From contig OZ220732.1 in assembly GCA_965116905.1 (NCBI GenBank), positions 1,472,001-1,536,000 of the forward strand: a stretch of 64,000 nt of DNA, given 5' to 3'. This document shows, one piece after another, positions 24,557 to 60,204 of the stretch. The DNA is from Longimicrobiales bacterium (GTDB lineage: Bacteria; Gemmatimonadota; Gemmatimonadetes; Longimicrobiales; Gaopeijiaceae). The notes under the pieces are model-generated. The model saw only the letters and a list, made by a program, of their open reading frames with translations, was not told where the DNA came from and made no database searches. The stretch's first letter is position 1. Every line of letters begins with the position of its first letter. A program made the translations under genes and the position numbers.

Positions 24557-25732
24557 CTAGCTCTGCTGCGAGGCGTGCCAATCCGCCAGCACCTCGGCCT
24601 CCCGCTCGGGGCTAAGCCTGTTCAACACCTCAGCCTGCCGCTCGGCCGTGCGCGAGAAGTGAAACTCCAGCGTTGCCGCGGTCGTGTCGGCGAGAGACCT
24701 GAAGGTGAGCCCCTTCTCCACTTCCGGAGTGAGGTCGAAACGCGCGAAGCCCTCGGCGCCATCCCGTGCCGGACGCCACACCGGCATCTCGCCGTAGGGG
24801 CGGAGCCCGGCGTCGATCACGAAGTCGGTGTCCACCCAGGTGAAGGTGGTCTCGGCCGTGGTCACGGCCCGGATCCCGTACAGCAACTCGGCCATCGGGC
24901 GCGGTGTCCGTGGACCGACCACGTTGTACGTGCCGGACTCGCCCGCTTCGGCCATGCGCACCAGCCAGTCGCCGAAGTCGCGCACATCGATGATCTGCAC
25001 GGGATCGGTGCCGTCGCCGGGCGCAAGTACCTCGCCGCCCCGATGAATCCGGACCGGCCAGTACGTGAAGCGGTCGGTCGGGTCGCCGGGGCCGATGATC
25101 AGGCCGGGCCGGAAGACGATCGTGCGGTCCTCGCCGAAGGCGTCCCGGGCGATCTGCTCGGAGAGCGCCTTGCCGAGTCCGTAGGGCAGCCGCTCCGCGC
25201 CCGGCTCCACTCCGGCCAGCTCGTGGGTCCACACGGGCGCGTCGGTCGTCATGGGGATTCGGCTCGTGTCGGCGTACACCGACCGCGTGGACACGAAGAT
25301 GTACCGCTCGCAGGTGTCCTTCAGCAGGTTGGCGCTCAGTTCGACCCAGTGCGGGGCGTTGGTCGCCGAGTTGTCCACGACCACGTCCCAGCTCCGCCCT
25401 TCCAGCGCCGTAAGGTCGCTTTCACGGTCGCCGACGAGCTTCTCCACCTCGGGAAACAGGTGCGCGTTGGTACGGCCCCGGTTGAAGAGCGTGACCTCGT
25501 GACCGCGGGAGAGCGCGTACTCGACCTGGTGGGGGCCGATGAAACCGGTCCCGCCGAGGATCAGGATCCTGAGCGGGTTCGAGGCCCGGGACTGGCCGGC
25601 GTCATCGGACCCCGCCGCGGGTCCATCGCCGTCAACCGCGCAGCCCGTGAGTGCGAACGAACCCATCCCTGCGGCGACCGCGCCCCCCGCCGCTGCCGTA
25701 GTCTTCAGAAAGTCACGCCGATTCGTCCTCAT
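24557..25732 (-). CDS. Tat-exported NAD-dependent epimerase/dehydratase (atypical SDR)
   Basis: MRTNRRDFLK twin-arginine signal, LTGC; ILILGGTGFIG, YGLGK, RPGLIIGP.DPTDRFTYWP. Confidence 0.92.
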   Translation of the reverse strand: MRTNRRDFLKTTAAAGGAVAAGMGSFALTGCAVDGDGPAAGSDDAGQSRASNPLRILILGGTGFIGPHQVEYALSRGHEVTLFNRGRTNAHLFPEVEKLVGDRESDLTALEGRSWDVVVDNSATNAPHWVELSANLLKDTCERYIFVSTRSVYADTSRIPMTTDAPVWTHELAGVEPGAERLPYGLGKALSEQIARDAFGEDRTIVFRPGLIIGPGDPTDRFTYWPVRIHRGGEVLAPGDGTDPVQIIDVRDFGDWLVRMAEAGESGTYNVVGPRTPRPMAELLYGIRAVTTAETTFTWVDTDFVIDAGLRPYGEMPVWRPARDGAEGFARFDLTPEVEKGLTFRSLADTTAATLEFHFSRTAERQAEVLNRLSPEREAEVLADWHASQQS

Positions 25733-25785
25733 TCTCGCCTTCCTTCGTGTAGAGTGTCGCGGCCCGCGTGCGGCTACAGGTCCCG

Positions 25786-26595
25786 TTACAGATCCCGCCT
25801 GCGCATGTTTACGTAGGCCAGCCCCAGGAAGATTACCACGTACGCCATCGCCGCGACCAGCGGGATCCACAGATCCGGGTACGCCATCAGGTCCTGGCCG
25901 CGTTCCGCCCGCGCGGCGTTCGTGCGCGCCAGCACCTCGGGGTAGTACAGAGCTGTGTCGGTGATCGTCTGGTACAACTGGCCGGGCAGGAACTCGAACA
26001 CGGGCTCGAGCGCGTTCCACCGCAGCGAGAGCAGCGCCGTGACGATCTGCTCGCAGATGAAGTAGAGGAAGAGCAGACCGAGCCCGGCGCCCGCCGCCCG
26101 GATCAGCGCCGAGATCATCAGCGCAGCCGTTCCCCACAGCGACAGCGCGGCAACGAACCCCAGCATGTAGTTGAAGTCCATGGGCTCGATGAAGGCGCCG
26201 CCGCCCGAACCCGGAGTCCGGGCCACTTGCAGGATGCCGATCACCGTCGGGATCGCGATGAAGACGGCGATCATCGGCACCAGCAACAGGACCTTCCCCC
26301 AGTAGAACTGCTCCTTGCCGAGCCCGTCGATGACGTTCTGCCGGGCGGTTCGCCACCGAAACTCCGGGGCGAAGAGCAGGATCATCAGCGCGGCCAGGAA
26401 CACCGGCCCCAGGTTGATCGCGGGCTCGATGATGCCGCTCCAGGCGTCGGGGAACGAAACCTCCGAGGACGAGCCGCCCGACGACACGATCGCGATCGCA
26501 TTGAACGCGGTGAACACGCCCAGGGTCACCCAGCACGCGGGGCGCTTGACCGCCTTGAGCGTCTCGATCCGCCACAGAACGCGCGGCAGCCTCAT
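25786..26595 (-). CDS. ABC-2 type transporter permease
   Basis: About six TM helices, EFRWRTARQNVIDG motif; overlaps the ATPase stop (ATGA). Confidence 0.88.
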   Translation of the reverse strand: MRLPRVLWRIETLKAVKRPACWVTLGVFTAFNAIAIVSSGGSSSEVSFPDAWSGIIEPAINLGPVFLAALMILLFAPEFRWRTARQNVIDGLGKEQFYWGKVLLLVPMIAVFIAIPTVIGILQVARTPGSGGGAFIEPMDFNYMLGFVAALSLWGTAALMISALIRAAGAGLGLLFLYFICEQIVTALLSLRWNALEPVFEFLPGQLYQTITDTALYYPEVLARTNAARAERGQDLMAYPDLWIPLVAAMAYVVIFLGLAYVNMRRRDL

Positions 26596-27539
26596 GAGGC
26601 GAACTCCGTCAGCGACGCCGCGCCCACCCCTTCGCCCTCGCCTTCGTCCTCGCCGGTCAGGTCCATGAAGGCGTCCTCCAGGCTCCGGTGCCGGCGCGCG
26701 AGGTGCGAGACGTAGATCCCCTGGCCCGCGAGGTACCGGTTGAGGGCCGCGAGGTCGTCCGACGCCAGCGCGACGACCAGCCCGTCGTCGGACGCGCGCA
26801 CGGACGTTGCCTCTGGAAAGGCCTCCAGGGCCGCGCGCAACGCCTCGTCATCTTCCGCCCGCACGACCGCGGTGATCTCGCCGCCGACGATCTCGGCCAC
26901 CGTCCCCGTGCCCACGACCCGACCCTTCCTCACAATCGAAACGTGGGTGCAGGTGCGCTCCACCTCCCACAGGAGATGGCTCGACAGGAAGATCGTCTTT
27001 CCGCGGTCCGCCAGCAGCCGGATGATGTCGCGGACCTCCTTCATGCCCTTCGGATCCAGCCCGTTGGCCGGCTCGTCGAGCACGATCAGCTCGGGGTCGT
27101 TCAGCATTGTGGCCGCCAGCGCAAGCCGCTGCTTCATCCCCAGCGAATAGGTCCGAAAGCGATGCTTCCCGCGCCCGCGCAGCCCCACGATATCCAGACA
27201 TTCCTCGATCCGCGCCTTGCCGATTCCCTTGATCGCCGCAGCGATCCGCAGATTGTCCCGGCCGCTGAGGTAGGGATAGAAGTTCGGCGTCTCCAGCGTG
27301 GCCCCGACCCTCGCGCGGGCGGTCAGGAGGTCCCGCGGGGCGCCTGCGCCGAAGAGTCGAAAACTCCCCGCCGTGGGCTTGATGATGCCCATCAGCATCC
27401 CGATCGTCGTGGTCTTGCCGCTGCCGTTCGGGCCCAGGAAGCCGAAGACCTGGCCCTGCTCGACCGTGAGCGAGACGCGGTCGACGGCCAGGACCGCGGG
27501 GAAGCGCTTGGTGAGCCCGGTGGTTTCGATTACGGTCAC
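26592..27539 (-). CDS. ABC transporter ATP-binding protein (BcrA/DrrA-like)
   Basis: GPNGSGKTT, YSLGMKQR, LDEPANGLD, SSH. Confidence 0.95.
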   Translation of the reverse strand: MTVIETTGLTKRFPAVLAVDRVSLTVEQGQVFGFLGPNGSGKTTTIGMLMGIIKPTAGSFRLFGAGAPRDLLTARARVGATLETPNFYPYLSGRDNLRIAAAIKGIGKARIEECLDIVGLRGRGKHRFRTYSLGMKQRLALAATMLNDPELIVLDEPANGLDPKGMKEVRDIIRLLADRGKTIFLSSHLLWEVERTCTHVSIVRKGRVVGTGTVAEIVGGEITAVVRAEDDEALRAALEAFPEATSVRASDDGLVVALASDDLAALNRYLAGQGIYVSHLARRHRSLEDAFMDLTGEDEGEGEGVGAASLTEFAS

Positions 27540-27559: not shown

Positions 27560-28453
27560 TCAGGGCGTAACCGTGACGCGCACGTAGGCGTTCGTCCAGC
27601 AGCACTGGTCGCCGCCGGTGCTGTCGTTCGCATCCCAGTTGTCGATGCGCGCGCGCAGCACGTACTCGCCGGGCTCGCTGAACACGACGCTCGCCGTGGC
27701 CTCGCCGGTGCCGCCTTCGACCGTCACCCGCCTGGGATCGACCGTGATCTGCCCGGCGGGCCCCTGATGCTTGAACCAGCTCAGCCCGACGTCGACGACC
27801 TCGTTCACCATGTCGTCGGGTGCGCGGACGGATACCTCCTCGGTCCAGAGCGTCAGCGTGAGCGGCTCGCCCACCGTGGCCGTGAGCGGCTCCCCCCACA
27901 CGCCCTGGATGTGCTGGCCCGCCGGCCCGTCGGCGGTGAAGCGCACGACCGGCGGCACCGATCCCATGGCCCGCGGCCCGTAATCCAGCTGCAGCGCCGG
28001 GATGCCGACGCGCCCCGGGGTCGCGTTCGTCCAGCCATTCGCCGTGATCGTCCACACCACCGCCTGCTCCCCGTCCTCGTACGAAGCCGGGACTGTGACG
28101 TGGAAGACGCCCCGGTCCCGTCGCGGACGCACCGGAAAGTGGGTGGGCTGCATGCCGTCGAACTCGGCCGGCTCGATGAAGTTGTCGGGACCGATCGGGA
28201 TGTCGAGGACCTGCTCGCTGTTCAGGTTGAAGAACCCGAACGAGAGCGTGAAGGTGCCGTCGTCGTTGCGGTACCAGCCCTCGAAGAAGGGGGCCACCTC
28301 GTCCCCTTTGGTCAGGATCGGGGCGAGCGGCAGCCGCTGTCGCTCCTGGGCGTGCAGGGACACGCCCGCCGCCGCGTACACAGCGAGCAGGAGGAGCGTC
28401 CCCGGCAGGATCCTCGCCGCGGCGACGGTCCGCGCCACAAATGGGCTGCGCAT
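27560..28453 (-). CDS. Exported hypothetical protein, partner of the heme-copper monooxygenase-like protein (copy 1)
   Basis: Signal peptide LHA-Q; VAPFFEGWYRNDDGTFTLSFGFFNLN, QPTHF, FSEPGEYVLRA, C-terminal QCCWTN; paralog of 53599-54712; start overlaps the upstream stop. Confidence 0.85.
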   Translation of the reverse strand: MRSPFVARTVAAARILPGTLLLLAVYAAAGVSLHAQERQRLPLAPILTKGDEVAPFFEGWYRNDDGTFTLSFGFFNLNSEQVLDIPIGPDNFIEPAEFDGMQPTHFPVRPRRDRGVFHVTVPASYEDGEQAVVWTITANGWTNATPGRVGIPALQLDYGPRAMGSVPPVVRFTADGPAGQHIQGVWGEPLTATVGEPLTLTLWTEEVSVRAPDDMVNEVVDVGLSWFKHQGPAGQITVDPRRVTVEGGTGEATASVVFSEPGEYVLRARIDNWDANDSTGGDQCCWTNAYVRVTVTP

Positions 28454-29862
28454 CAGCGGCTGTCGGTGCCGTCGTTGCCGTTGCCGCTGCTGTTGTCTTC
28501 GCTGTCGGTCGCGAGCTTGGCCTCACGGTCTTCGACCAGCCTCTGGTAGCCGTCCTCGGTCAGGTGGGTGACGGCGATCCACGCGTGCGACATCTCGTCC
28601 ATCGTGCGCGAACCGCGCGCGTACCAGATCTCCGGATCCGGCGTGAGCTCGTTATCGGCGGTGTTGTCGTACCACCCGGTCAGCACGACAACCGTCCCCG
28701 CCGGGAGGAGCGGCGCGACGTCGTCTTCGTAGATGTAGCTGTGGTGCCAGCGCGCGTCGAAGTCCGTGACCATGCTGATCAGCTCGACATCGCCGTCGGG
28801 ATACACGGCCTGTATGGACATCGCGTGGAGGTGCACGTGGCCGTGCGGCTGGTAGCTGTCGATCCGCACCGGGTGGTCCCAGCGGTGGAAGCCCTGGGTC
28901 ATCGCGGTCCCTCCGGGGGCTAGGGCGATGTCGCCGCGGAGCGGGTACAGGCGCAGGTCCTGCCGGAACTCCGGCTCGTAGCCCTCCTCGTGGAACCAGA
29001 TCCCGAGCTCGAGCTGGTCGCCGGGCACGTCGTATCCCATGGGATAGTAGTGGGCGTCCCACTCGATCATGTCGGTCGTCTTGAGGAGTCGCCCGGCGTC
29101 GCGGGGCACGATTTCGCCGACCTTCCCCATGGCGTACTCGGACAGGCTCTGGATGCGGCGGTACTCGCCCTCTTCGTTGAGCCGCAGGAGCCGCGGGATG
29201 GCGTGGTGGACGACCTGGCGGCCTGCCGGGAAGGAGGGACGCGTCTCGGCCGCCATCACCCACCGGTCCTCGTCCAGCCCCGTCGGCACGCGCGGCCGCC
29301 ACCAGGTGTCGCCGCCCTCGGCAGACACGTCGAAGGGCTTCGACTTGATGACGTGATCGGGCGGGCCGAGGATGTCCTCGAGTTGCCACATCTGCTTGTT
29401 CGGCCACTCGATCGGCGGCGGCAAATCGGCGGGGTCGCCCTCGGGCGCTCCGGCGTCCACCCACGCCACGAAGGTCTCGATGTCCTCTTCGCTCAGCCGC
29501 CAGTCATCCTTGATGTCCTGGATGCCGACCCCGGTGTCGAGGTGGTACGGGGGCATGAGGCGCTTCGACACGAGGTTCCGGGCACGCGACGCGTAACGGC
29601 GGACCTCCTGGTACGTCATGAGCGACATCGGACCCACGGAAGCAGGCCGGTGGCAGATCTCGCAGTTGGCCTGGAGGATGGGGGCGACGTCCCTGGCATA
29701 GGTCACGTCGGCCTCGTGGGCGCCGCCGTTACTGGCGGTCTGTTGGGCGGCGACGGGCGACGCGACGACCAGCAAAACAACGGTCGCCAGCGCGGCGACG
29801 GACGGTGCCGACACGGCCAATCGGTTCGACAGATGCTCCGAGCGGACAGGCAGCGTGCGCAT
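28453..29862 (-). CDS. Exported cytochrome c plus copper type II (PHM/DBH-like) monooxygenase fusion (copy 1)
   Basis: GGAGG RBS; signal peptide; CEICH, MPPY; VVHHA, DAHYY, PHGH, DEM candidate copper ligands. Confidence 0.85.
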   Translation of the reverse strand: MRTLPVRSEHLSNRLAVSAPSVAALATVVLLVVASPVAAQQTASNGGAHEADVTYARDVAPILQANCEICHRPASVGPMSLMTYQEVRRYASRARNLVSKRLMPPYHLDTGVGIQDIKDDWRLSEEDIETFVAWVDAGAPEGDPADLPPPIEWPNKQMWQLEDILGPPDHVIKSKPFDVSAEGGDTWWRPRVPTGLDEDRWVMAAETRPSFPAGRQVVHHAIPRLLRLNEEGEYRRIQSLSEYAMGKVGEIVPRDAGRLLKTTDMIEWDAHYYPMGYDVPGDQLELGIWFHEEGYEPEFRQDLRLYPLRGDIALAPGGTAMTQGFHRWDHPVRIDSYQPHGHVHLHAMSIQAVYPDGDVELISMVTDFDARWHHSYIYEDDVAPLLPAGTVVVLTGWYDNTADNELTPDPEIWYARGSRTMDEMSHAWIAVTHLTEDGYQRLVEDREAKLATDSEDNSSGNGNDGTDSR

Positions 29863-30006: not shown

Positions 30007-30035
30007 TTGGCATCGACCCACCGCCGAAGTATGAT
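30007..30035 (+). promoter_or_regulatory. Candidate sigma70-type promoter of the SDR-amidase operon
   Basis: TTGGCA(30007)-17 bp-TATGAT(30030); the -35 lies in one arm of the GCCAAGCAA/TTGCTTGGC inverted repeat (29964-30011). Confidence 0.4.
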
Positions 30036-30096
30036 GGCCGCGGACATGTTCCCACGGAGGAATAGTCCCGATGTACCCTCGATCGGTAACAAGCGC

Positions 30097-31233
30097 ATGA
30101 ACGACACGACACGACCTGGCCCAAACCGGCGCGAATTCCTCCTGACCGCAGGGGTGGCGGGCGCCGGGCTTGCCCTGGGCGCCGGTTGCGCCCCCGCTCC
30201 CGACCGCTCCCCCGCGCCGAAGCGGTTCCTCATACTGGGCGGGACCGGGTTCATCGGGCCGCACACGGTCCGGTACGCCGTGGAGCGCGGCCACGAAGTC
30301 ACGATCTTCACGCGGGGCCGCGCCGACGCGGACCTCCCCGACGTCGAGCGCCTTGTCGGGGACCGCAACGGCGACCTGACCGCGCTGGAAGGGCGAACCT
30401 GGGACGTCGTCTTCGACAACAACTGCCAGAACTATCGCTGGGCGCAGCTCAGCACCGAACTCCTCAAGGATGCGGCGGAGCAATACATCTTCATCTCGTC
30501 GATCTCCGCCTACGCGATCGAGGGCATGGACTTCTCCAGGAGCGAGACCGTGCTTTGGGACCCCGCGGTGCCGGAGAACTACCCGCGCTTCGAGCCGCCC
30601 GAGGGATGGCAGGACGGTGACGACGCGCACTACGGGCTCATGAAACGACTGAGCGAGGATATCTCGCACGCCGCCTTTCCTGGCCGCGCCACCATCATTC
30701 GACCTGGGCTGATCGTCGGCCCCACCGACCCCACCGACCGGTTCACCTACTGGCCCGTGCGGATCGAGCAAGGCGGAGAGGTGCTGGCCCCGGGCAACCC
30801 CGACCACTCGACCCAGATCATCGACCAGCGCGACCTCACCGAGTGGACGGTGCGCATGGCCGAGGAAGGGGTGATGGGCGACTTCAATGCCACGGGCCCC
30901 GGGAGCCGCCTCTCGATGGCGGAGATGCTGTACGGGATCCGCTCGGTCACGACCCGGCCGGTGGAGTTCACCTGGGTGCCGTCGGAATTTCTGGAGGCGC
31001 AAGGCGTCACGGCGTGGGGCGACCTGCCTGCGTGGGTTCCGGGCAACGAACTCATGCACGTCGATGTGAGCCGGGCGGTGGCCGCCGGGCTGACGTTCCG
31101 CCCGTTGGCGGTGACCACGCGCGACACCCTCGAGTGGCACCGGACGCGACCAGAGTCGGAGTGGGAACAGCGCCGCTTCGGGATGAGTCGGGAGAGGGAG
31201 CGGGCGGTGCTGGACGCGTGGCACGCGGCTTGA
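30097..31233 (+). CDS. Tat-exported NAD-dependent epimerase/dehydratase, paralog of 24557-25732
   Basis: NRREFL twin-arginine signal, LGAGC; LILGGTGFIG, YGLMK, DPTDRFTYWPVRI. Confidence 0.92.
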   Translation: MNDTTRPGPNRREFLLTAGVAGAGLALGAGCAPAPDRSPAPKRFLILGGTGFIGPHTVRYAVERGHEVTIFTRGRADADLPDVERLVGDRNGDLTALEGRTWDVVFDNNCQNYRWAQLSTELLKDAAEQYIFISSISAYAIEGMDFSRSETVLWDPAVPENYPRFEPPEGWQDGDDAHYGLMKRLSEDISHAAFPGRATIIRPGLIVGPTDPTDRFTYWPVRIEQGGEVLAPGNPDHSTQIIDQRDLTEWTVRMAEEGVMGDFNATGPGSRLSMAEMLYGIRSVTTRPVEFTWVPSEFLEAQGVTAWGDLPAWVPGNELMHVDVSRAVAAGLTFRPLAVTTRDTLEWHRTRPESEWEQRRFGMSRERERAVLDAWHAA

Positions 31234-51995: not shown

Positions 51996-53576
51996 ATGTC
52001 GATCGCAAAGCTGTCCGGAACCTCCCTGATGGCGGGGGTGCTCACGTTGCCGGGAGCCGCTGCCGCGGCCCTGGTCGCCACAAGCCTGGCGTCCCCCCCT
52101 CTCGCCGCGCAGTCTGACGTGTCCGCCCGGCGCGACGCGGCCCCGCAGGAAGCCCCGCCCGCCCAGGAGGACGTCACCTTCACCCGCGACATCGCGCCCA
52201 TCCTCCAGCGCGCCTGCGTGCGCTGTCACCGTGACGACGGCGTGGCCCCCATGTCGCTCGTCGCTTACGACGAGGTGAAGCCCTACGCAAGCCGGATCGC
52301 GCGCCGCACGCAGATCCGCGACCGCGCAGGCGCGATGCCCCCCTGGTACGTCGAGAAGGACATCGGCATCCAGCACTTCAAGGACGACATGTCCCTCCAG
52401 GACCACGAGATCGCCGCGCTGCAGCAGTGGTGGCGCGCCGGAACGCCCGAAGGCGACCCCGCGGATCTTCCTCCCCCGCTCGAGTTCGACGACGAAGTGG
52501 TGTGGGTGGCGGGCGAGCCCGACCTGATCGTGAAGCTGCCCGAGGTGCTGGTCGAAGACGACGTCCCCGACTGGTGGGGCGACATCGAACCGATCCCGAC
52601 CGGCCTCACCGAAGACCGCTACGTCAAGTCCGTCGAGATCCGCGAGGTCAACGACGTCGGCCGCAACCCCGACGGCGGACACGAGGGACGCCACACCGTC
52701 GGCGGCCGCTTCGTCGTGCACCACATGATCTGGAGCACCCGCGTCCCCGCCGAGGAAGCGGGCGACGGCCCCAGAAGCACGAGCTGGCCGGTCCACGAGG
52801 TCGGCCGCGAGCCCGACATCTTCGACGACGACGCGGGCCGCCTCCTGCGAGCGGGTTCGTCCGTCGTCTCCAACTCGCTGCACCTGCACTCCAACGGCCG
52901 CGACACGCGTGCCCACCTCGAAATCGGCTTCCGCTTCCACCCGCCCGACTACGAGCCGAAATACCGGCGGGCCTTCTTCGGCCTGGGCAACGGCAGCGAC
53001 ATCGACATCCGCGCCGGTGAGGCGGGCCAGGAACTGCACGCCTACCAGGTCCTCAACCAGCACACCAAGATCGTCACTTTCGAACCCCACCTGCACGCCC
53101 CCGGCATGCGCATGTGCCTCGAGGCCATCTGGGGCTTCAACGTCGAGACGATCAACTGCGTCGGCTACGATCACAACTGGGTGCGCGGCTACACCTACGC
53201 CCAGGACCACCAGCCGCTGCTCCCGCGCGGAACGGTCCTGCACATCGTCGGCTACATGGACACTTCGGAAGCGAACCGCAACGTGCCCGACACCCGCAAC
53301 TGGCAGGGCTCCGGCAATCGCTCCGTCGCCAACATGTTCATCGACCTCGGCATGCGCGTCGCCCTCACCGACGAGCAGTTCGTCGAGGAGATGGCGCTCC
53401 GCCGCGAACGCCTCGCACTCGGTCCCAACGACCACGTGATCGGGTGTCCGCTCTGCATGGTCATCCCCGAGAACGGGAATCCCCGCTACTATGCCGCAGA
53501 TGGGGATGGGGCCGGAGGCCAGAGCGACCAGACCGGCAATTCGACGGGTGCGAACCGTGGCCGCGGGAATCGGTAG
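51996..53576 (+). CDS. Exported cytochrome c plus copper type II (PHM/DBH-like) monooxygenase fusion (copy 2)
   Basis: Signal peptide LAA-Q; VTFTRDIAPILQRACVRCH, MPPW; VVHHM, LHLH, PHLH, ANM candidate ligands; C-terminal CPLC. Confidence 0.85.
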   Translation: MSIAKLSGTSLMAGVLTLPGAAAAALVATSLASPPLAAQSDVSARRDAAPQEAPPAQEDVTFTRDIAPILQRACVRCHRDDGVAPMSLVAYDEVKPYASRIARRTQIRDRAGAMPPWYVEKDIGIQHFKDDMSLQDHEIAALQQWWRAGTPEGDPADLPPPLEFDDEVVWVAGEPDLIVKLPEVLVEDDVPDWWGDIEPIPTGLTEDRYVKSVEIREVNDVGRNPDGGHEGRHTVGGRFVVHHMIWSTRVPAEEAGDGPRSTSWPVHEVGREPDIFDDDAGRLLRAGSSVVSNSLHLHSNGRDTRAHLEIGFRFHPPDYEPKYRRAFFGLGNGSDIDIRAGEAGQELHAYQVLNQHTKIVTFEPHLHAPGMRMCLEAIWGFNVETINCVGYDHNWVRGYTYAQDHQPLLPRGTVLHIVGYMDTSEANRNVPDTRNWQGSGNRSVANMFIDLGMRVALTDEQFVEEMALRRERLALGPNDHVIGCPLCMVIPENGNPRYYAADGDGAGGQSDQTGNSTGANRGRGNR

Positions 53577-53598
53577 CGGCGTGGGAGGAGGGTTCGCG

Positions 53599-54712
53599 GT
53601 GACAGCGCCGCCTGGCTGGCGGGACCGGACGCCGATTCGAGCGCGGGGCCAGGTGGCCGCGGTGACCGTTCCGTTCGCGATCTCCCTGCTCGTTGCCTTC
53701 GCGATCCCCCCCCGAAGCTGCCGCCCAGACCTATCAGCGCGGCCAGAACGTGGCGCCCGCCTTCGAGGGCTGGGAGCGCAACGAGGACGGCTCGTTCAGC
53801 TTCCTCTTCGGCTACATGAACCGGAACTGGCTCGAAGAGGTCGACGTGCCGGTCGGGGAGCACAACGCGTTCTCGCCCGGCCCGGCGGACCGGGGACAGC
53901 CCACGCACTTCCTGCCGCGCCGCAACCGCTTCGTGTTCAAGGTCCGCGTGCCCGCCGACTGGGGCGACAGGGAACTGGTGTGGACGCTCACGAGCAACGG
54001 CGTCACCGAGCGCGCCTACGCGACCCTGCGGCCCGACTACGTGGTCGACAACGTCGTGATCATGTCCGAGACGGGCGCCCTGGGAGCCGGGTCGAGCAAC
54101 GCGCAGATGCGGGCGAACCAGCCTCCGACGATCACGCTCGAGGGACCGGAAGCGCGCCAGGCCACCGTGGGAGTCCCGCTCGGCATCACGGTGCTCGTGG
54201 AGGACGACGGCCTGCTGAGATCTCGCCGCCGACCTCCGCCCCCGCCCCCGGAGACTCCCGAGGACTCCGCGCGCGCCGACTCGATCTGGAACGCGCCGCC
54301 GACCTTCAGCCGCAGACAGCTCACCCCTCCGTCCCGGATCACCGTGCAGAAGGCCAACGGCCTGTTCATGTCGTGGTTCCTGTACCGGGGCGACGGGGCC
54401 GAAGACGACATCGAGGCCGGCGAGAGCCCCGCGGCCGGCGAGCGCCCCGCGGCTGGCCAGCGCCCCGCGGCCGGCGAGAGCCCCGTGACCTTCGATCCGC
54501 CCCAGATCAAGGTGTGGGAGGACACGCGCGCCGGGGCCAACTCGCCCTGGGCCCCGCTGTGGGTGCCGCCCGAACTGCCTGAAGACGGCCGCTGGACCGT
54601 AAACGTAACCTTCGACCAGCCGGGGACCTACCTGCTGCGCGGGCGTGCGGACGACGGCGGCCTGTTCGCGGACGTGGAGGTCACGGTGACGGTGAGGCCG
54701 GTGGCGAGTTGA
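53599..54712 (+). pseudogene. Exported partner protein (copy 2), +1 frameshift in a C8 tract within the signal-peptide region
   Basis: GGAGGAGG RBS then GTG 53599 gives ...FAISLLVAFAIPP; after C8 (53706-53713) the next frame reads EAAAQTYQRGQNVAPAFEGWERNEDGSFSFLFGYMN...QPTHF...FDQPGTYLLRG. Confidence 0.8.
54416..54484 (+). repeat. Nearly four 18-bp in-frame tandem repeats (AGESPA/AGERPA/AGQRPA/AGESP)
   Basis: GCCGGCGAGAGCCCCGCG-like units inside the partner gene. Confidence 0.85.
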
Positions 54713-54731: not shown

Positions 54732-54760
54732 TTGACTCGGCACCATCTTACCAGTAAGAT
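54732..54760 (+). promoter_or_regulatory. Sigma70-type promoter with overlapping palindromic operator, leaderless TA transcript
   Basis: TTGACT(54732)-17 bp-TAAGAT(54755); ATCTTAC-CA-GTAAGAT (54745-54760); ATG at 54768. Confidence 0.75.
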
Positions 54761-54767
54761 TCCTGTC

Positions 54768-55028
54768 ATGAACGACATCGCAACAACCAGATTGTCGTCC
54801 AAAGGTCAGGTCGTTATTCCGGAAGCGATTCGACAGAGGATGGGACTCGAAACGGGCACCGAGTTTGTGGTGGTCGGCGAAGATGGGACGGTGGTACTCA
54901 AGGTGATCGAGCCGCCTTCGATGCGGGATTTCGACGAGATTGTGGCAAAGGCGCGAAGCGGTGCGCGGCTTGCCGGACTGCGCGAATCCGATATCGCTGA
55001 TGCGATCCGCGCCGTACGATCGGCGTGA
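54768..55028 (+). CDS. AbrB/MazE/SpoVT family antitoxin
   Basis: TTRLSSKGQVVIPEAIRQRMGL..GTEF...GTVVLK. Confidence 0.92.
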   Translation: MNDIATTRLSSKGQVVIPEAIRQRMGLETGTEFVVVGEDGTVVLKVIEPPSMRDFDEIVAKARSGARLAGLRESDIADAIRAVRSA

Positions 55029-55135
55029 AGGTCGTCGTCGATACCAACGTCTTCGTCTCGGGAGTGTTCTTTGGCGGACCACCGGGCGACGTGCTCGCGG
55101 CTTGGCGTCTGTCCCTAACGGTCGATGCGGGCTAA
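55025..55135 (+). pseudogene. Truncated PIN-domain toxin (36 codons)
   Basis: GTGA overlap with the antitoxin; MKVVVDTNVFVSGVFFGGPPGDVLAAWR then unrelated residues and TAA at 55133. Confidence 0.85.
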
Positions 55136-55153
55136 CCGGACCCCCGCGGCGAG

Positions 55154-55972
55154 TCAAGCCGGTTCGTCGGCAACCCTCGGCAGGATCCCCCCCGGCTGAC
55201 CGAAGTGGGGCACCAGACCCTGTTCCTCCAGGGAGAGCCCGGGGGACGGCGCAGCGAAGTGGCCGCGGTTCGGAGCATGGTATAGACAGCCAACCTCTTC
55301 GTGGGGCCTTCTGCGGATGAACTCGTCCGCATCAGAGAGCGCCGCCTGCCAAACGGTCCTTGCTTCGACGAGATCGAAGGGCCGGGCGAGGGCAAGCCGG
55401 GCGATCTCCTCTGGCTGGAAGCGGCCCCGGCGTTTCAGCTGTTCGAGCAGCGAAGCCGGCGTGAATCCGGGATCCTTGCCGACGGCCGCCCAGACCATTG
55501 CACCCAGGGGCAGGACATGCTGGTGCGCGTGGAGAATGTCTACGAAGTCGCGTGCCTCGTCGCGACCCGCAAGCGTCAGCACCTTGTTGATCGCCAAGTC
55601 CACCTCGTGCAACACCTGGCCGCCCATTTCGTCGCGCACCAGAGGCATGAAGCGCCAGGCCGAGTCGTGAGCCCAGTTGGGGCAGGCCATCGGATCACCG
55701 GCGCCAAGCAGTCGCCCCGCCATCCTCCAGGCCCTCATGTCTCCGTTCTTCTTCAGCGTCTCGGCGACCCAGGCAACGTCGGTGGGGCCAATTTCCAGAT
55801 CCCTGCGGTAGGACCAGAAGCACGGGGCATGAAACTCGCGGAAGGCCCGCCGGGCTTCGCGAACGCGCACCATGGCCCTGGCCGTCTCGGGGTCGAGTGA
55901 GCGACGACTCTTCCTGCCCCCCTTGCGGCCGATCTCCGCCAGGTATCTCTGGATGTTGCTGTCCATGGTCAT
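55154..55972 (-). CDS. Apparent in-frame fusion of a small basic protein to the C-terminal part of an AbiEii-like nucleotidyltransferase
   Basis: N-part YLAEIGRKGG...CFWS...AWRMAGRL; short junction LGAGDPMACPN; C-part WAHDSAWRF...DLAINKVLTLAGRDEARDFVD. No GG...S.D.D nucleotidyltransferase motif is present. Confidence 0.6.
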   Translation of the reverse strand: MTMDSNIQRYLAEIGRKGGRKSRRSLDPETARAMVRVREARRAFREFHAPCFWSYRRDLEIGPTDVAWVAETLKKNGDMRAWRMAGRLLGAGDPMACPNWAHDSAWRFMPLVRDEMGGQVLHEVDLAINKVLTLAGRDEARDFVDILHAHQHVLPLGAMVWAAVGKDPGFTPASLLEQLKRRGRFQPEEIARLALARPFDLVEARTVWQAALSDADEFIRRRPHEEVGCLYHAPNRGHFAAPSPGLSLEEQGLVPHFGQPGGILPRVADEPA

Positions 55973-55976
55973 ATCA

Positions 55977-55987
55977 TAAGCGGCTTA
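55977..55987. promoter_or_regulatory. Short palindrome immediately upstream of the fusion gene
   Basis: TAAGC-G-GCTTA. Confidence 0.4.
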
Positions 55988-56061
55988 CGTTCATTCGTCG
56001 AGCGTGACGTGTCTTCGCCGGCAACGTGGAGAGTTGGTCCAGGAATCGCCCGGTGGGCGAG

Positions 56062-56466
56062 TTAGGGCTGCAGAATCCGGGCGCGGGGCAGCTTCGCCAT
56101 CGCCCGGTCCAGCGTGAGGACATCCAGATCTTCGCGTGTGTAGTCGTCGGCGATGAGTCGATCCAGCAAGCCGGCACCGCCGGTGCTCCCGATCGCGTCC
56201 AGGACGCTCCTCCCGTTCAAGGGAGCGACGAGGCCGCTGCGCAGCACATGAAGCAGCCCCGCACGGGCGTCCGCCTTGGTCACGCCGTAGTGGTGCTGGA
56301 CCGCGACATATGCCTCGCCGATCACCTGGTTCGACGCGAACACGCCGGCGCCTTCGTCTCTCACGAGGACGGACAGTGCCTGCACGGACCTCGCGAAGTC
56401 AGCCTCGGGGACGCCGGTCAGCAGGCGCACCAGTACGGACGTGTCAATCCCGTAGCGACGGATCAT
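56062..56466 (-). CDS. vapC: VapC family PIN-domain toxin
   Basis: YGIDTSVLVRLL, VIGEAY, GLLDRLI, LTLDR; overlaps the antitoxin 3' end. Confidence 0.88.
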   Translation of the reverse strand: MIRRYGIDTSVLVRLLTGVPEADFARSVQALSVLVRDEGAGVFASNQVIGEAYVAVQHHYGVTKADARAGLLHVLRSGLVAPLNGRSVLDAIGSTGGAGLLDRLIADDYTREDLDVLTLDRAMAKLPRARILQP

Positions 56467-56686
56467 GGGGCTGCGCACGGAAGGAATGGATATCGAACGT
56501 CTCGTATCCGGGTCGCAACTTGCCGCGTAGCGGCGCCAGGCGGGAGAGGTCGATTCGGTGCCGGCGAACGACGAAGCCGTCGGGACCTTCCTCCAACTCG
56601 AGGCGGTCGCCGGGCTGCACGCCCATCGCCTCCAGCACCCGTGCAGGAAACGTGACCTGGCGCTTCGATGTGATCCTGATGAGCAT
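56444..56686 (-). CDS. AbrB/MazE family antitoxin
   Basis: MLIRITSKRQVTFPARVLEAMGVQPGDRLEL...GFVVR; GGAAGGGG RBS. Confidence 0.9.
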   Translation of the reverse strand: MLIRITSKRQVTFPARVLEAMGVQPGDRLELEEGPDGFVVRRHRIDLSRLAPLRGKLRPGYETFDIHSFRAQPHDPSLRD

Positions 56687-56756: not shown

Positions 56757-58706
56757 CTACAGCCGGTACCGCTCCTGCAGCACCGCCACAGACGCCAGCA
56801 TGAGCAGGAGCGAGTCCAGGGAAGGACGGTCATCGGCCGCCAGCGTGGGCAACTGATCCAGCAGGCGCTCCACCGCCCGGTGATCCAGGAAGGGGACCGC
56901 GCGCATGGCCGTCCCGCGCAGGGTGTCCTGCAGGAAGTCGTGGAGTGGGCCGTCCGTGCCGACCGCCGATGGTCCCATGAACGGACGCTTAACGCGCTGG
57001 TAGACCGGGTCCGGGATGTACGGGCGCATGGCTTCGCGCAGCAGGTGCTTCTCGCGGGGGTGGTGGGCGAGGAGGGAGACGGGGAGGCTGTTCGTGTATT
57101 CGAAGAGGTGGTGGTCGAGGAAGGGGAGCCGCACCTCGACGCCGTGCGCCATGTCGAGCCGGTCGGCGGCGAGGTGGTAGTTGGCGAAGAGGGAGTGCAG
57201 CCAGAGGTAGAGCAGTCGCCGGGCGGGCTCGCGCCGGGACAGGTCGGCGGTCCGCCGGCAGCGGCGGTAGTAGGCGCGGTAGAGGTCGTACCCGGCGAAG
57301 TCGTCCAGGAAGTCGCGGGAGCACACCGCGTGGAGCCGGCCGAGGCCGCCCGCCAGGCGCGTGAAGAGCGAGGGCGCCGCCGGAAGCAGGAGAGCGAGGC
57401 GCGCGAGCCAGGGTGAGGCGGCCGCCAGGCCGGGGTAGTGGCGCGAGGGCGAGCGCAGGAATGCTGACAGGATGCGGGGGAGGAGGGTGACGACGCGGGC
57501 GAGGGAGCCAGCGTCGGAAGCGCGGCCGGCCCCCGCCGCGGCCCGCAGGAACTCGTAGCCGAAGAAGGCTTCGTCCGCGCCCTCGCCGGCGAGCACCGAC
57601 TTGTAGCCGGCGTCCCGGACGCCTCGGCTGAGCAGGTACCGCGCGGCGCCGTGCGTGTTGTACTGGATCGTCTCGGCGTGGAACACCGCGTCGGCGAAGT
57701 GATCGGCCAGGTCGCCATCCGCTGCGGTCACGACCGTGTGCCGTGCGCCGGCCGCCGCGGCCGCTTCGCGCGCGCCCCGGCTCTCGTCGTAGTCGCGGCG
57801 CTCGAAGCCGACCGTGAAGGCGGCGACCGGGTCGTCTACACACGACGCGGCCACGCCGAGCACCGCCGACGAGTCCAACCCGCCGCTCAGCAGGCATCCC
57901 ACGGGCACGGCCGCGACCATGCGCAGCGCGACCGACTCTTCCGTGAGTTCGCGCACGCGCCCGATGGCTTCGTCCACTGGGGGGCCGGTCGACCGCGCGC
58001 GGCGGAACGCGGCGGCTCGGGATCGGTGGACCGGGACGGGGAGGTCCCAGTAGCGTTCCAGACGCACCCCGGATCGGTCGGCGTGCAGCACGTGGCCCGG
58101 CGGCACCTGCGAAATGCCCGCGAACAGCGAGATCCTCTCGTCGGGGCAGGCGTGAAGCGCGTGGTAGACGCCCCGCGGGTCCCACGAAGCCGCGATGCCG
58201 GCCGCCATGAGCGCCTTTGCCTCGGACGCGAGGTAGAGGCGGCCTTCCTTCTCGGCATAAAAGAGGGGCTTCAGCCCGAACCGGTCGCGTGCCGCGAAGA
58301 GGACGCCGCTCTCTTCATCCCAAACAGCCATTGCAAACTGTCCCCGCAGGTGCTGAAGGCACGCGGGGCCGAGGTCCTCGTACAGGTGGAGCGCGATTTC
58401 GCTGTCCGAGCGCGTGCGGAAGCGGTGGCCCTTCGCTTCGAGCCCCTTGCGGATGCGCTTGTAGTCGTAGAACTGGCCGTTGACGACGATGTGGAGGCGC
58501 CCGTCCTCGCTGGCGATCGGCTGGTGACCTTCGGGGTCGGTGATCGCGAGGAGGTTGTGGCCCAGGCCCGCGCGTCCCGAGGGGGAGACCCAGATCCGCT
58601 CGCCGTCGGGGCCGCGGTGGCGGAGCGCGGCGGTGGCGTGGCGGAGGGCTTGCTCGGGCACGGGGTGGCCGGGATCCGGCGACAGGATTACGGCGATTCC
58701 ACACAT
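56757..58706 (-). CDS. asnB: Asparagine synthase (glutamine-hydrolysing) family amidotransferase
   Basis: MCGI (Cys1), HRGPD, RDRFGLKPL, LSGGLDSS, GEGADE, DRLDMAHGVEVRLPFLD. Confidence 0.92.
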   Translation of the reverse strand: MCGIAVILSPDPGHPVPEQALRHATAALRHRGPDGERIWVSPSGRAGLGHNLLAITDPEGHQPIASEDGRLHIVVNGQFYDYKRIRKGLEAKGHRFRTRSDSEIALHLYEDLGPACLQHLRGQFAMAVWDEESGVLFAARDRFGLKPLFYAEKEGRLYLASEAKALMAAGIAASWDPRGVYHALHACPDERISLFAGISQVPPGHVLHADRSGVRLERYWDLPVPVHRSRAAAFRRARSTGPPVDEAIGRVRELTEESVALRMVAAVPVGCLLSGGLDSSAVLGVAASCVDDPVAAFTVGFERRDYDESRGAREAAAAAGARHTVVTAADGDLADHFADAVFHAETIQYNTHGAARYLLSRGVRDAGYKSVLAGEGADEAFFGYEFLRAAAGAGRASDAGSLARVVTLLPRILSAFLRSPSRHYPGLAAASPWLARLALLLPAAPSLFTRLAGGLGRLHAVCSRDFLDDFAGYDLYRAYYRRCRRTADLSRREPARRLLYLWLHSLFANYHLAADRLDMAHGVEVRLPFLDHHLFEYTNSLPVSLLAHHPREKHLLREAMRPYIPDPVYQRVKRPFMGPSAVGTDGPLHDFLQDTLRGTAMRAVPFLDHRAVERLLDQLPTLAADDRPSLDSLLLMLASVAVLQERYRL

Positions 58707-58713
58707 CGGCGGC

Positions 58714-60204
58714 TCAGTCGGGGAGGTGCACGGCAACTTGCCCGTTGGCGCAGTTGAAGCGCATCAGGGGGACTTGCTCGCCGCGGGTGAGCTCGAGGTT
58801 GTCCGGGGTGATCCGCTGGACGACCGCGACCGCCTCGATTTCGCCGGCTTCGGGGTGCGTGCGCGCGAACCGCTGGGCGTGCCTCTCGAGCAGCGATCGG
58901 CGGACGGCGGCGAGCTTTTGGGGCTCCATCTGCAGCCACACGTTGCCGAAGAAGTAGGATTGGAGGAGAAGGTGCCGCATACCTCCCGGGAAGAGCTCAC
59001 GCGGCTCGATGCGCCTTTCGCGGCCCGGGCGGAGGCTCCGCACCTCGTACCGGACGTGATAGTTCCGCTCGTCCACCCAGTCGAACAGCCGGTAGCTCTG
59101 GTAGAGTCCCACCAGCCACAGGAGGGCGCGCACGGGGTTGGCCCATCGTTCGCCGGAGTAGGGCTGGCCGGGCCTGGGCAGCCTCAACCGGGCCCTCACC
59201 GCCTGCCACGCACTCATGATCGCCAGAAGCGCGACGAGGGTGAGCGCGGCGAGGTCCGCGGGGCCGGCCGCGGTCGCGGTTTCGGCGGCGGCCCCGGGCG
59301 CGGCGGCAGAGGCCCCGGTGGCGGCGGCCGTGGCCCCGGTGGCGGCGAGTCCCGGGACGCCCTGCAAGACTCCCTGCACGATCTCGGGCGCAAACGGGAG
59401 GGCCAGCGCGGACAGCATGAGCGCGTTGGAGTACGGGATCTTGAGCGTGGCGATGATGCCCAGGTGGAAGACGGCGGCGGCCGCCAGGAGCGCCCACTTG
59501 GCGGCTGAGCCCGCCGGCAGCACGAAGATCAGGACGAAGAGCGGTTCCAGAAACAGTGCGGCCCAGGTCACGATGCGCAGACCGGACCGATGGCGGATCG
59601 ACCACAAGTCGGGCGTGCGTGCGATCGGCATCCTGAGCGCGGCGTGCATGGCGGAGCCGCCTCGCCACATGGGGCTGGCGAACTTGTACAGGCCGGCGAC
59701 CAGGTAGATCAGCGCCATGTTGGCCATGAAGGCGCGGGGGGCGGTGCCGGGGACGGTCGCGGTGGCCCAGCTGCCCCCCAGCAGGTCCGGCAGGTTCAGG
59801 GTGGTGCCGACGGGTAGCAGGATCAGCCACAGGCAGAAGAGGTGGACGATCGAGTCGTCCAGGTAGGCGACGAGCGCGTTCCAGCGATAGGTCGAGACCG
59901 CCGCCGCGAACAGGAACACGGCCGCCGCGCGGGGGTGCCAGCCGATGACGACCAGGATCGCAGCCGCGCACGCGCCCAGGTAGACGGCGCGGAAGACCCA
60001 CCCGGGCATTCCCGGCTGAAAGAGGCTGATCCGGGTGGGGGGAAAGAGGCGAACCGAAAGCCGGTGGTCGATCAGGCCGTCGGGGTCGGAGAAGTCGCCC
60101 GCGTGGCGGTACGCGTTGGCGAAATAGACGAAGAGCACGCCTCCCGCGAGGATGCGCATGATGTCCAGCGGGAGGGCGTGGATCGGGGCTGCGAGCGTAT
60201 GCAT
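58714..60204 (-). CDS. HTTM domain (vitamin K-dependent gamma-carboxylase-like) membrane protein
   Basis: MRIL.G, FSDPDGL, LVVIGWHPR, IYLVAGLYK...WRGGSAM, FHLGI motifs with multiple TM helices and a fused soluble C-terminal domain. Confidence 0.8.
   Translation of the reverse strand: MHTLAAPIHALPLDIMRILAGGVLFVYFANAYRHAGDFSDPDGLIDHRLSVRLFPPTRISLFQPGMPGWVFRAVYLGACAAAILVVIGWHPRAAAVFLFAAAVSTYRWNALVAYLDDSIVHLFCLWLILLPVGTTLNLPDLLGGSWATATVPGTAPRAFMANMALIYLVAGLYKFASPMWRGGSAMHAALRMPIARTPDLWSIRHRSGLRIVTWAALFLEPLFVLIFVLPAGSAAKWALLAAAAVFHLGIIATLKIPYSNALMLSALALPFAPEIVQGVLQGVPGLAATGATAAATGASAAAPGAAAETATAAGPADLAALTLVALLAIMSAWQAVRARLRLPRPGQPYSGERWANPVRALLWLVGLYQSYRLFDWVDERNYHVRYEVRSLRPGRERRIEPRELFPGGMRHLLLQSYFFGNVWLQMEPQKLAAVRRSLLERHAQRFARTHPEAGEIEAVAVVQRITPDNLELTRGEQVPLMRFNCANGQVAVHLPD

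Follow-up and report, generated by a model that had tools for sequence, protein, structure and literature searches.

A predicted heme c-containing copper monooxygenase of the PHM/DBH type and its dedicated partner protein in Gemmatimonadota

To our knowledge, PHM and DBH have been studied almost only as animal enzymes. Here we describe a pair of bacterial genes, one of which encodes a distant relative of both. The pair lies in a window of 64,000 nucleotides from a Longimicrobiales bacterium (contig OZ220732.1 of assembly GCA_965116905.1, positions 1,472,001 to 1,536,000), to which plain coordinates below refer. Its first gene encodes a protein in which a predicted cytochrome c is fused to a PHM/DBH-type copper core, and the second encodes a partner that, across genomes, travels with it. 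We propose that together they would form a periplasmic copper monooxygenase fed with electrons through its own heme.

Results

Organization of the locus

Enzyme and partner genes of copy 1 are translationally coupled: the TGA of the former and the ATG of the latter share one base (TGATG), and an AGGAGG stands 8 nucleotides before the ATG of the enzyme gene (Table 1). Along the enzyme the motifs read C67-x-x-C70-H71, M103-P-P, V-V-H219-H220, H271-Y, P-H340-G-H342 and D-E-M424. An earlier note on this DNA, made from the letters alone, had reported the open reading frame (ORF), its heme motif, the order VVHH, xHY, PHxH and DEM, and a coupled partner ending in QCCWTN, and all of these are where it had placed them. 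A scan of the locus for promoters and terminators gave nothing convincing. RNA-library contigs from two libraries span the pair, one of them spanning all flanks too; such contigs carry neither strand nor level.

Table 1. Features of the two-gene module and of its surroundings, with coordinates in the window.
Feature	Coordinates	Strand	Details
Predicted heme-c / PHM-DBH-type copper monooxygenase gene, copy 1	28453..29862	-	469 aa, clade A
Predicted Sec signal peptide, residues 1-39	29746..29862	-	read from sequence
Predicted monoheme class I cytochrome c domain, residues ~53-140	29443..29706	-	CxxCH 29664-29650; likely distal Met103 (MPP) 29556-29548
Predicted two-domain beta-sandwich copper core, residues ~165-439	28546..29370	-	DBH Z 21.3, rmsd 3.1, 269 aligned
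His219-His220, predicted CuH ligands	29203..29208	-	= DBH His262/His263
His271, third predicted CuH ligand	29050..29052	-	= DBH His333
His340-x-His342, predicted CuM ligands	28837..28845	-	= DBH His412/His414
Met424, predicted CuM thioether ligand	28591..28593	-	= PHM Met314, DBH Met487
Partner gene, copy 1	27560..28453	-	297 aa; signal peptide, N-terminal beta-sandwich, C-terminal Ig/PKD-like sandwich
Vicinal Cys284-Cys285 of partner copy 1	27599..27604	-	Q-C284-C285-W-T-N, 12 residues from end; clade A only
Paralogous predicted monooxygenase, copy 2	51996..53576	+	526 aa, clade B; same ten ligands, hairpin Cys pair, C-terminal CPLC
Paralogous partner, copy 2	53598..54712	+	no Cys-Cys; in this assembly the C8 run 53706-53713 throws the signal peptide out of frame
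ABC-2 exporter and SDR/epimerase	24557..27539	-	neighbours only, outside the module

The enzyme is related to PHM and DBH

The AlphaFold2 model of the enzyme (54-sequence alignment; pLDDT 87.7, pTM 0.85) shows a helical N-terminal domain followed by two beta-sandwiches. When it was searched with Foldseek, PHM and DBH entries took ranks 1 to 31 among the matches listed, with E values from 1e-12 to 9e-10, and the next fold among those matches came at 2.7e-6. With VIA-align, Z was 21.3 for DBH (root-mean-square deviation, rmsd, 3.1 over 269 aligned residues), 15.9-19.9 for PHM and 8.6 for the next fold. Superposition on PHM, a check that the earlier note had suggested, thus returned a PHM-like fold, and the PHM/DBH architecture it had read from the motifs is borne out by both programs.

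The match to DBH extends to individual residues. A profile of the copper core built from 43 sequences and searched against PDB gave human DBH as its only significant match (E 2.8e-7), and in this alignment (offset 39) H219/H220, H271 and H340/H342 fall in register with His262/263, His333 and His412/414, the DBH ligands named in PMC4846438. M424 lies outside the profile alignment and was placed on Met487 of DBH and Met314 of PHM from the register at the ends of the structural alignments, those with DBH and most of those with PHM. Two residues before the first CuM histidine, Gln338 aligns with DBH Gln410. Atlas groups the enzyme core with Cu2_monoox_C clusters (0.95), this family being annotated on 30-44% of their members. 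Judged by model and profile, the enzyme is a true relative of PHM and DBH, homologous to them despite Pfam scores below cut-off.

All ten predicted heme and copper ligands are retained in 94 of 97 homologues, which are 21-89% identical to the query; one of the three exceptions is cut by a contig end and the other two have lost CuM ligands. In a larger set that includes near-duplicates the figure is 220 of 222. Taken one by one, C67, C70 and H71 are each present in 96 of the 97, M103 in all 97, H219, H220 and H271 in 97, 96 and 97, and M424 in 96. Heme-domain and EYAMGK patterns served to find the loci, so that part of the CxxCH conservation comes from selection; this does not apply to the copper ligands. 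Two homologues from marine Gammaproteobacteria (L029:11999-13132 and L038:13350-14471) were seen to carry the heme motif and all or most of the CuH ligands with R-x-N in place of the CuM His-x-His; these are possibly non-catalytic.

The N-terminal domain qualifies, by its motifs, as a class I monoheme cytochrome c fused to the copper core, so that the heme-copper fusion described in the earlier note stands, with the ligands kept in those 94 homologues. Cytochrome_CBB3 scores weakly in 87 of 91 family members, and the Pfam heme-domain scores stay below cut-off for copy 1. Hydrazine synthase alpha provides, with its C-terminal heme domain, the best PDB sequence match of the heme domain (29443-29706; E 0.0011). 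The copy-1 enzyme has two cysteines, both in CxxCH, and its copper core would therefore be free of disulfides.

The partner is dedicated to the enzyme

A partner gene is present within the locus, upstream or downstream, in 69 of 78 loci that were chosen by enzyme motifs alone. Of 31 related genomes, 18 carry both enzyme and partner and the other 13 carry neither (these genomes are kin and not independent); in a sample of 151 genomes from across the phylum, the partner was found in 24. Identities between enzymes correlate with those between their partners (rho 0.75 over 50 non-redundant pairs, 0 of 999 permutations). The strongest sign of dedication, as read from the predicted proteins, is natural fusion, which is found in both orders: enzyme then partner in one ORF (L147, L156 and L157) and partner then enzyme (P0366), with no second signal peptide at the junction. 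L147 and L156 are 97% identical and represent one case; L157, at 73%, has a different linker. A search for longer partner homologues returned no fusion (3 matches among 7989 scored) and was insensitive, given that fusions exist elsewhere. One candidate, P0313, joins a partner start to an enzyme end and was set aside as a probable assembly chimera. The neighbourhood survey proposed in the earlier note therefore finds the two families co-occurring across genomes, and its suggestion of a dedicated partner is upheld by the loci, the genomes and the fusions alike. As far as gene content can tell, this is a real, conserved two-gene module.

The copy-1 partner has a signal peptide (residues 1-35), and its model (pLDDT 95.4) consists of two beta-sandwiches. 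Fold searches gave only generic immunoglobulin (Ig)-like matches, with a best Z of 7.9 and the N-terminal domain barely covered. PKD scores weakly in 48 of 92 partner members, and the Pfam and NCBIfam scans put no family above cut-off for the partner, among them those of known copper chaperones (Sco, PCuAC, CopZ, CopC, CusF). Matches of the partner profile to the designed protein Tet4 in PDB were taken as chance.

The invariant residues of the partner are Gly, Pro, Asn, Trp and Phe; none is His, Cys or Met. Its first domain forms 5-7 tandem repeats in large proteins, 3 of the 4 scanned carrying DUF11, and its second domain occurs in giant repeat proteins. With no invariant His or Met and both domains found in repeat proteins, the partner would be a scaffold subunit and not a second enzyme. 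A second catalytic step, which the earlier note had considered for it, is not supported: the partner shows no invariant His or Cys, and its domains are of a kind that recurs as repeats in surface proteins. The N-terminal domain, which has no Pfam family and was seen in the repeat proteins P0275, P0302, P0365 and P0372, is best labelled an unnamed surface repeat domain on this showing. In P0267, a Cys-Cys partner is fused to two cupin domains.

Paralogues, clades and cysteines

By tblastn, the host genome contains three copies of each gene, with enzyme and partner always together; in the third pair (G000:C1:3844388-3846657) the partner lies upstream of the enzyme. The three enzymes are 35-47% identical in pairwise comparisons, which marks them as old paralogues. 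The partnered enzymes fall into clade A, with copies 1 and 3, and clades B/C, copy 2 belonging to B, and by this comparison the host copies are deep paralogues from two clades. The earlier note had spoken of a duplicated system: the recurrence at 51996-54712 is real, but these are three deep paralogues and not two copies. In copy 2 the CuM methionine lies in ANMF, where copy 1 has DEM. A run of eight C (53706-53713) shifts the signal-peptide frame of partner 2; three orthologues are without such a run, and one public contig from one run has one base fewer at 53706, so that the frameshift is either an assembly error or a variable homopolymer.

Named close homologues belong to Gemmatimonadota, including Candidatus Palauibacter at 77-78% identity, and sequencing runs labelled sponge metagenome contain 0.62 and 0.43 of the sampled words. 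We infer that the host is a sponge-associated member of that phylum. The enzyme family as a whole gave 2714 matches among 7999 scored candidates, and the partner profile 910 matches at 1e-30 among 50%-identity clusters, some of these being repeat proteins. The family, which has no name as yet, is multi-copy in abundant uncultured Gemmatimonadota, Acidobacteriota and Gammaproteobacteria. Two genomes of the order Vicinamibacterales (G090 and G109; L154, L155) hold at least 21 paralogues each, and tandem arrays of enzymes and partners occur at L048 and L046.

The cysteines follow the clades. Of 103 partners encoded beside clade-A enzymes, 102 have Cys-Cys, the sole exception being frameshifted; all 95 partners beside clade B and C enzymes lack it. 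Each of those 95 enzymes has instead two cysteines (positions 349/364) that closely follow the CuM His-x-His, to which clade B adds a C-terminal CxxC. Clade C has neither Cys-Cys (77 partners) nor a CxxC tail (71 enzymes), and the idea that partner Cys-Cys always trades with an enzyme CxxC tail was rejected for this reason. The 80 loci of the metagenome set were selected with the clade-C junction, and the cysteine counts consequently do not give natural frequencies. What complementarity remains between partner Cys-Cys and enzyme cysteines is a single change on both trees; the counts are therefore not independent, and we treat the swap as a lead and not as a statistic.

This pattern bears on whether the partner could be a copper chaperone or a thiol relay acting through Cys-Cys, a role that is compatible with a monooxygenase reading of the enzyme. 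The near-constancy of Cys-Cys beside clade-A enzymes, the extra Cys pair and CxxC tail of enzymes whose partners lack it, and the use of redoxins by distant members of the enzyme family would all fit such a role. They are offset by the single origin of the swap, by clade C, by the want of any invariant His or Met in the partner, and by the tandem repetition of both its domains in large surface proteins, and we consider the role unlikely. The Cys-Cys is probably a clade-A feature that forms a disulfide, and not a universal copper-loading site, if these alignments are a guide. The general function that the earlier note had given to the vicinal cysteines does not survive, whole clades (B, C) having partners that lack them.

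Neighbouring genes

The ATP-binding cassette (ABC) exporter (27539-25786) and the short-chain dehydrogenase/reductase (SDR)/epimerase (within 24557-25690) are placed as the earlier note said. Of 14 orthologous copy-1 loci (L002-L012, L148, L150 and L152, several of them short), 3 have an ABC exporter after the partner and 1 has it upstream; in the other 10 none was found. SDR homologues occur in 7 of the 14, each of these from a close relative. Neither recurs widely, and both were rejected as parts of the module, which undoes the link that had been drawn to them. Since its position varies among relatives, the exporter moves independently. In a genome of the same genus, an ABC-2 exporter lies upstream of the enzyme (L148:12140-13890), and none was found in L002 or L152. 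In close relatives, two paralogous SDR/epimerases, about 50% identical (24557-25690 and 30007-31233), stand on either side of the module and on opposite strands; the upstream one (30007-31233) has a Tat-like signal. After copy 2, the letters alone suggest small AbrB-like and PIN-like ORFs and an asparagine-synthase-like ORF (54732-56478, 56757-58736).

In 13 of the 78 loci, a gene for a pyrroloquinoline quinone (PQQ) dehydrogenase is found no more than 600 bp away (9 divergent, 4 co-directional). Counted by genome, 12 of 50 have such a neighbour, against the 1-2 or so expected from rough candidate counts. We regard PQQ dehydrogenases as plausible, optional electron donors. In the Vicinamibacterales metagenome-assembled genomes G063-G080, up to about 300 candidate stretches for PQQ dehydrogenases were seen per genome, these being candidates and not gene counts. 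A search for pqqC found none in the host genome and was positive in no control genome either. The host encodes CcmF and two heme-copper oxidases.

Discussion

We hold with moderate confidence that the pair is a periplasmic two-subunit copper monooxygenase in which a covalent heme c replaces ascorbate and the partner is non-catalytic. Compared with the earlier note, our analysis adds the residue-level match to DBH, the fusions in both orders and the restriction of the cysteines to one clade, and it excludes the exporter and the SDR.

In the mechanism we propose, the enzyme would be exported and hemylated at C67/C70, with His71 and Met103 as heme ligands, which the signal peptides on both chains and the CcmF of the genome make likely. 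His219, His220 and His271 would bind CuH, and His340, His342 and Met424 would bind CuM. Single electrons from the cytochrome c pool, a PQQ dehydrogenase or another periplasmic donor would enter at the heme and move on to CuH and CuM: a PHM/DBH ligand set fused to a one-electron His/Met heme c is most simply read as heme to CuH to CuM to O2. At CuM, O2 would be activated and used to hydroxylate a small organic molecule at an activated C-H bond, either benzylic or adjacent to nitrogen. This substrate would probably be an amine or an amide and not a Gly-extended peptide, with paralogues presumably differing in substrate. The partner may dock on the enzyme, either stabilising it or shaping its cleft, as a likely non-catalytic accessory subunit. 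What we observed are motifs, homology, conservation, linkage and fusion; monooxygenase activity, copper binding, heme attachment, the substrate class, the physical complex and the replacement of ascorbate by heme are what we infer. In PHM, ascorbate supplies two electrons that are stored on CuH and CuM, and O2 binds at CuM before C-H hydroxylation (PMC9064607); a fungal PQQ dehydrogenase drives a copper lytic polysaccharide monooxygenase (LPMO) via its cytochrome domain (PMC5960967).

The enzyme differs from each of the systems it resembles. Human DBH (PDB 4ZEL), tyramine beta-monooxygenase and MOXD1/2 share its two-sandwich catalytic core, predicted export and extra domains; in DBH the residues His262/263/333, His412/414 and Gln410 match His219/220/271, His340/342 and Gln338 of the enzyme. 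In place of the DOMON beta-sandwich, however, it has a helical N-terminal cytochrome c, no dimerisation domain was seen in it, and copy 1 lacks disulfides, which the DBH core has (PMC4846438). It is also bacterial, only 13-14% identical, and has a two-sandwich partner, separate or fused. PHM, the monooxygenase part of PAM (PDB 1PHM, 1OPM, 1SDW, 6ALA), has the same fold and ligand order, His-His...His / His-x-His...Met. The enzyme differs from it by a Gln at the R240 position (an equivalence inferred from the place of Gln338 two residues before the first CuM His), by the lack of a fixed PAL lyase and of disulfides, and by a built-in heme where PHM uses ascorbate; the fused heme suggests a donor other than ascorbate.

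Systems in which a PQQ pyranose dehydrogenase (AA12/AA8) or cellobiose dehydrogenase serves an LPMO follow the same logic, from dehydrogenase through cytochrome to copper monooxygenase. Here, though, a c-type cytochrome is joined to the oxygenase in one chain, the copper would sit in a PHM-type site and not in a histidine brace, and the dehydrogenase link would be optional, being predicted from gene neighbourhood. The redoxin-type cytochrome c/PHM-like proteins L140-L142 have the same heme domain and all ten ligands; they form a distant branch that uses a redoxin and has no two-sandwich partner. WP_284688968.1, encoded beside the redoxin WP_284688969.1, is a 25% tblastn match. A redoxin-adjacent form (L236:3255-5308) lies on a plasmid of a cultured member of Bacteroidota, Chondrinema litorale, a possible tractable host. 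In sum, the enzyme is homologous to PHM and DBH but is neither of them: it has no DOMON, Arg anchor, fixed PAL or copy-1 disulfides, and has a fused heme and a partner instead.

The electron flow might also run the other way. Hemes of type c that are fused to periplasmic dehydrogenases are usually electron exits, and thiocyanate dehydrogenase is a copper enzyme. The copper sites of our enzyme could likewise oxidise an amine, thiol or phenol, with the electrons leaving through the heme for the respiratory chain, in which case the enzyme would be a copper dehydrogenase; cytochrome c has been sought as the acceptor of thiocyanate dehydrogenase (PMC9456337), and no dedicated donor is encoded beside any copy in the host genome. 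Against this, the full CuH/CuM set, O2-site Met included, is invariant. The characterised members of the fold among the structure matches listed are all monooxygenases, and the neighbours enriched at these loci are dehydrogenases, which produce electrons. We think this direction improbable.

We also give little probability to the enzyme being a true bacterial PHM, hydroxylating the C-terminal glycine of peptides or acyl-glycines, with a PAL-like NHL-propeller lyase completing amidation or cleavage. Its fold is as close to PHM as to DBH, and the host is rich in amidases and amidohydrolases. At the substrate anchor, PHM binds the carboxylate through R240 (PMC9064607), and Arg is found at that place in 10 of 56 clade-A representatives; Gln occupies it in 46, Glu in 28 of 28 from clade B, and copy 1 has Gln338, aligned with DBH Gln410. 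The best reading of these alignments is that the enzyme is more DBH-like than PHM-like at the anchor. NHL-propeller genes do lie within 600 bp in 8 of the 78 loci (4 co-directional), and one matches PAL at E 1e-15, but this neighbour matches TRIM71/Thin better, the genes are heterogeneous, and none of the 8 strong NHL genes in the host genome is near any copy. A PAL-like link is not supported at these loci, the matches being generic. Variation at the anchor, together with the at least 21 paralogues in single genomes, suggests hydroxylases that have diversified over small amines, amides or aromatics.

It is very improbable that the enzyme serves in the periplasm as a reductase or in detoxification (of peroxide, NO, nitrite, an N-oxide or O2), with the heme as electron entry and no organic substrate: distant members fused to or adjoining redoxin domains, the hydrazine synthase match and the peroxide-shunt chemistry of PHM (PMC9064607) could fit it, but the paralogue numbers and the clade-specific cleft residues fit substrate diversification better.

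Several observations weigh against the two-subunit heme-copper monooxygenase that we favour. Identity of the enzyme to PHM and DBH is just 13-17%. PF01082 and PF03712 fall below the gathering score for copy 1 (PF03712 reaches 12 bits against a cut-off of 23), with no match at E 0.1, and among 91 relatives they match weakly in 11 and 3; for none of the four proteins did Pfam or NCBIfam put a family above cut-off, and PDB sequence searches with the single protein and with two full-length profiles missed PHM and DBH. The HMM check against Cu2_monooxygen and Cu2_monoox_C that the earlier note had proposed thus comes out negative for copy 1, though the homology is real. A His/Met heme is able to pass electrons either way. 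The adjacent PQQ dehydrogenases are not one clade in a quick tree, and several of their loci are close kin; such a gene is present in just 2 of the 80 short metagenome loci and beside no copy in the host genome. Genes of the neighbourhood point to no substrate. As for the partner, 9 of the 78 loci lack it in the available DNA (in 2 of these a contig edge is close by), distant enzymes of the family, whether fused to a redoxin or standing alone, come without one, and gene linkage alone would yield congruent enzyme and partner trees.

A wider reading is tentative, and we find it rather doubtful: that these proteins form a large class of two-subunit heme-dicopper monooxygenases, so far undescribed and connected by their own cytochrome c to electron flow from periplasmic PQQ and respiration, in which the partner would close the CuH-CuM cleft and a redox-active Cys pair would sit on the partner (clade A) or on the enzyme (B, C). 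This class would make up a P450-like periplasmic repertoire of hydroxylases, with more than 20 paralogues in a genome, in sponge, marine and soil bacteria, and the bacterial stock of the animal PHM/DBH core.

Databases already tag some bacterial proteins with Cu2_monoox_C. In literature searched by listings and abstract openings, with subscription journals and supplements outside the scope, we found no study of the heme-copper enzyme family, nor any functional study of the redoxin-type branch. Monooxygenase, copper and PQQ do not appear in the main text of PMC10469786 as far as it was available, and PMC12912966, in the portion available, cites PHM only as a eukaryotic comparison.

The way in which electrons bridge the 11 A that separate CuH from CuM is unsettled, with long-range transfer set against an open-to-closed motion, and ascorbate, serving at once as reductant and activator, confounds studies of PHM (PMC9064607). 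With its heme built in and no disulfides, a bacterial form would offer an optical reporter and an ascorbate-free entry for electrons, and would so make the CuH-CuM question directly testable. For the bacteria that carry it, often in many copies, the family may be an unrecognised route of organic-matter oxidation, and it may be a source of catalysts for C-H hydroxylation.

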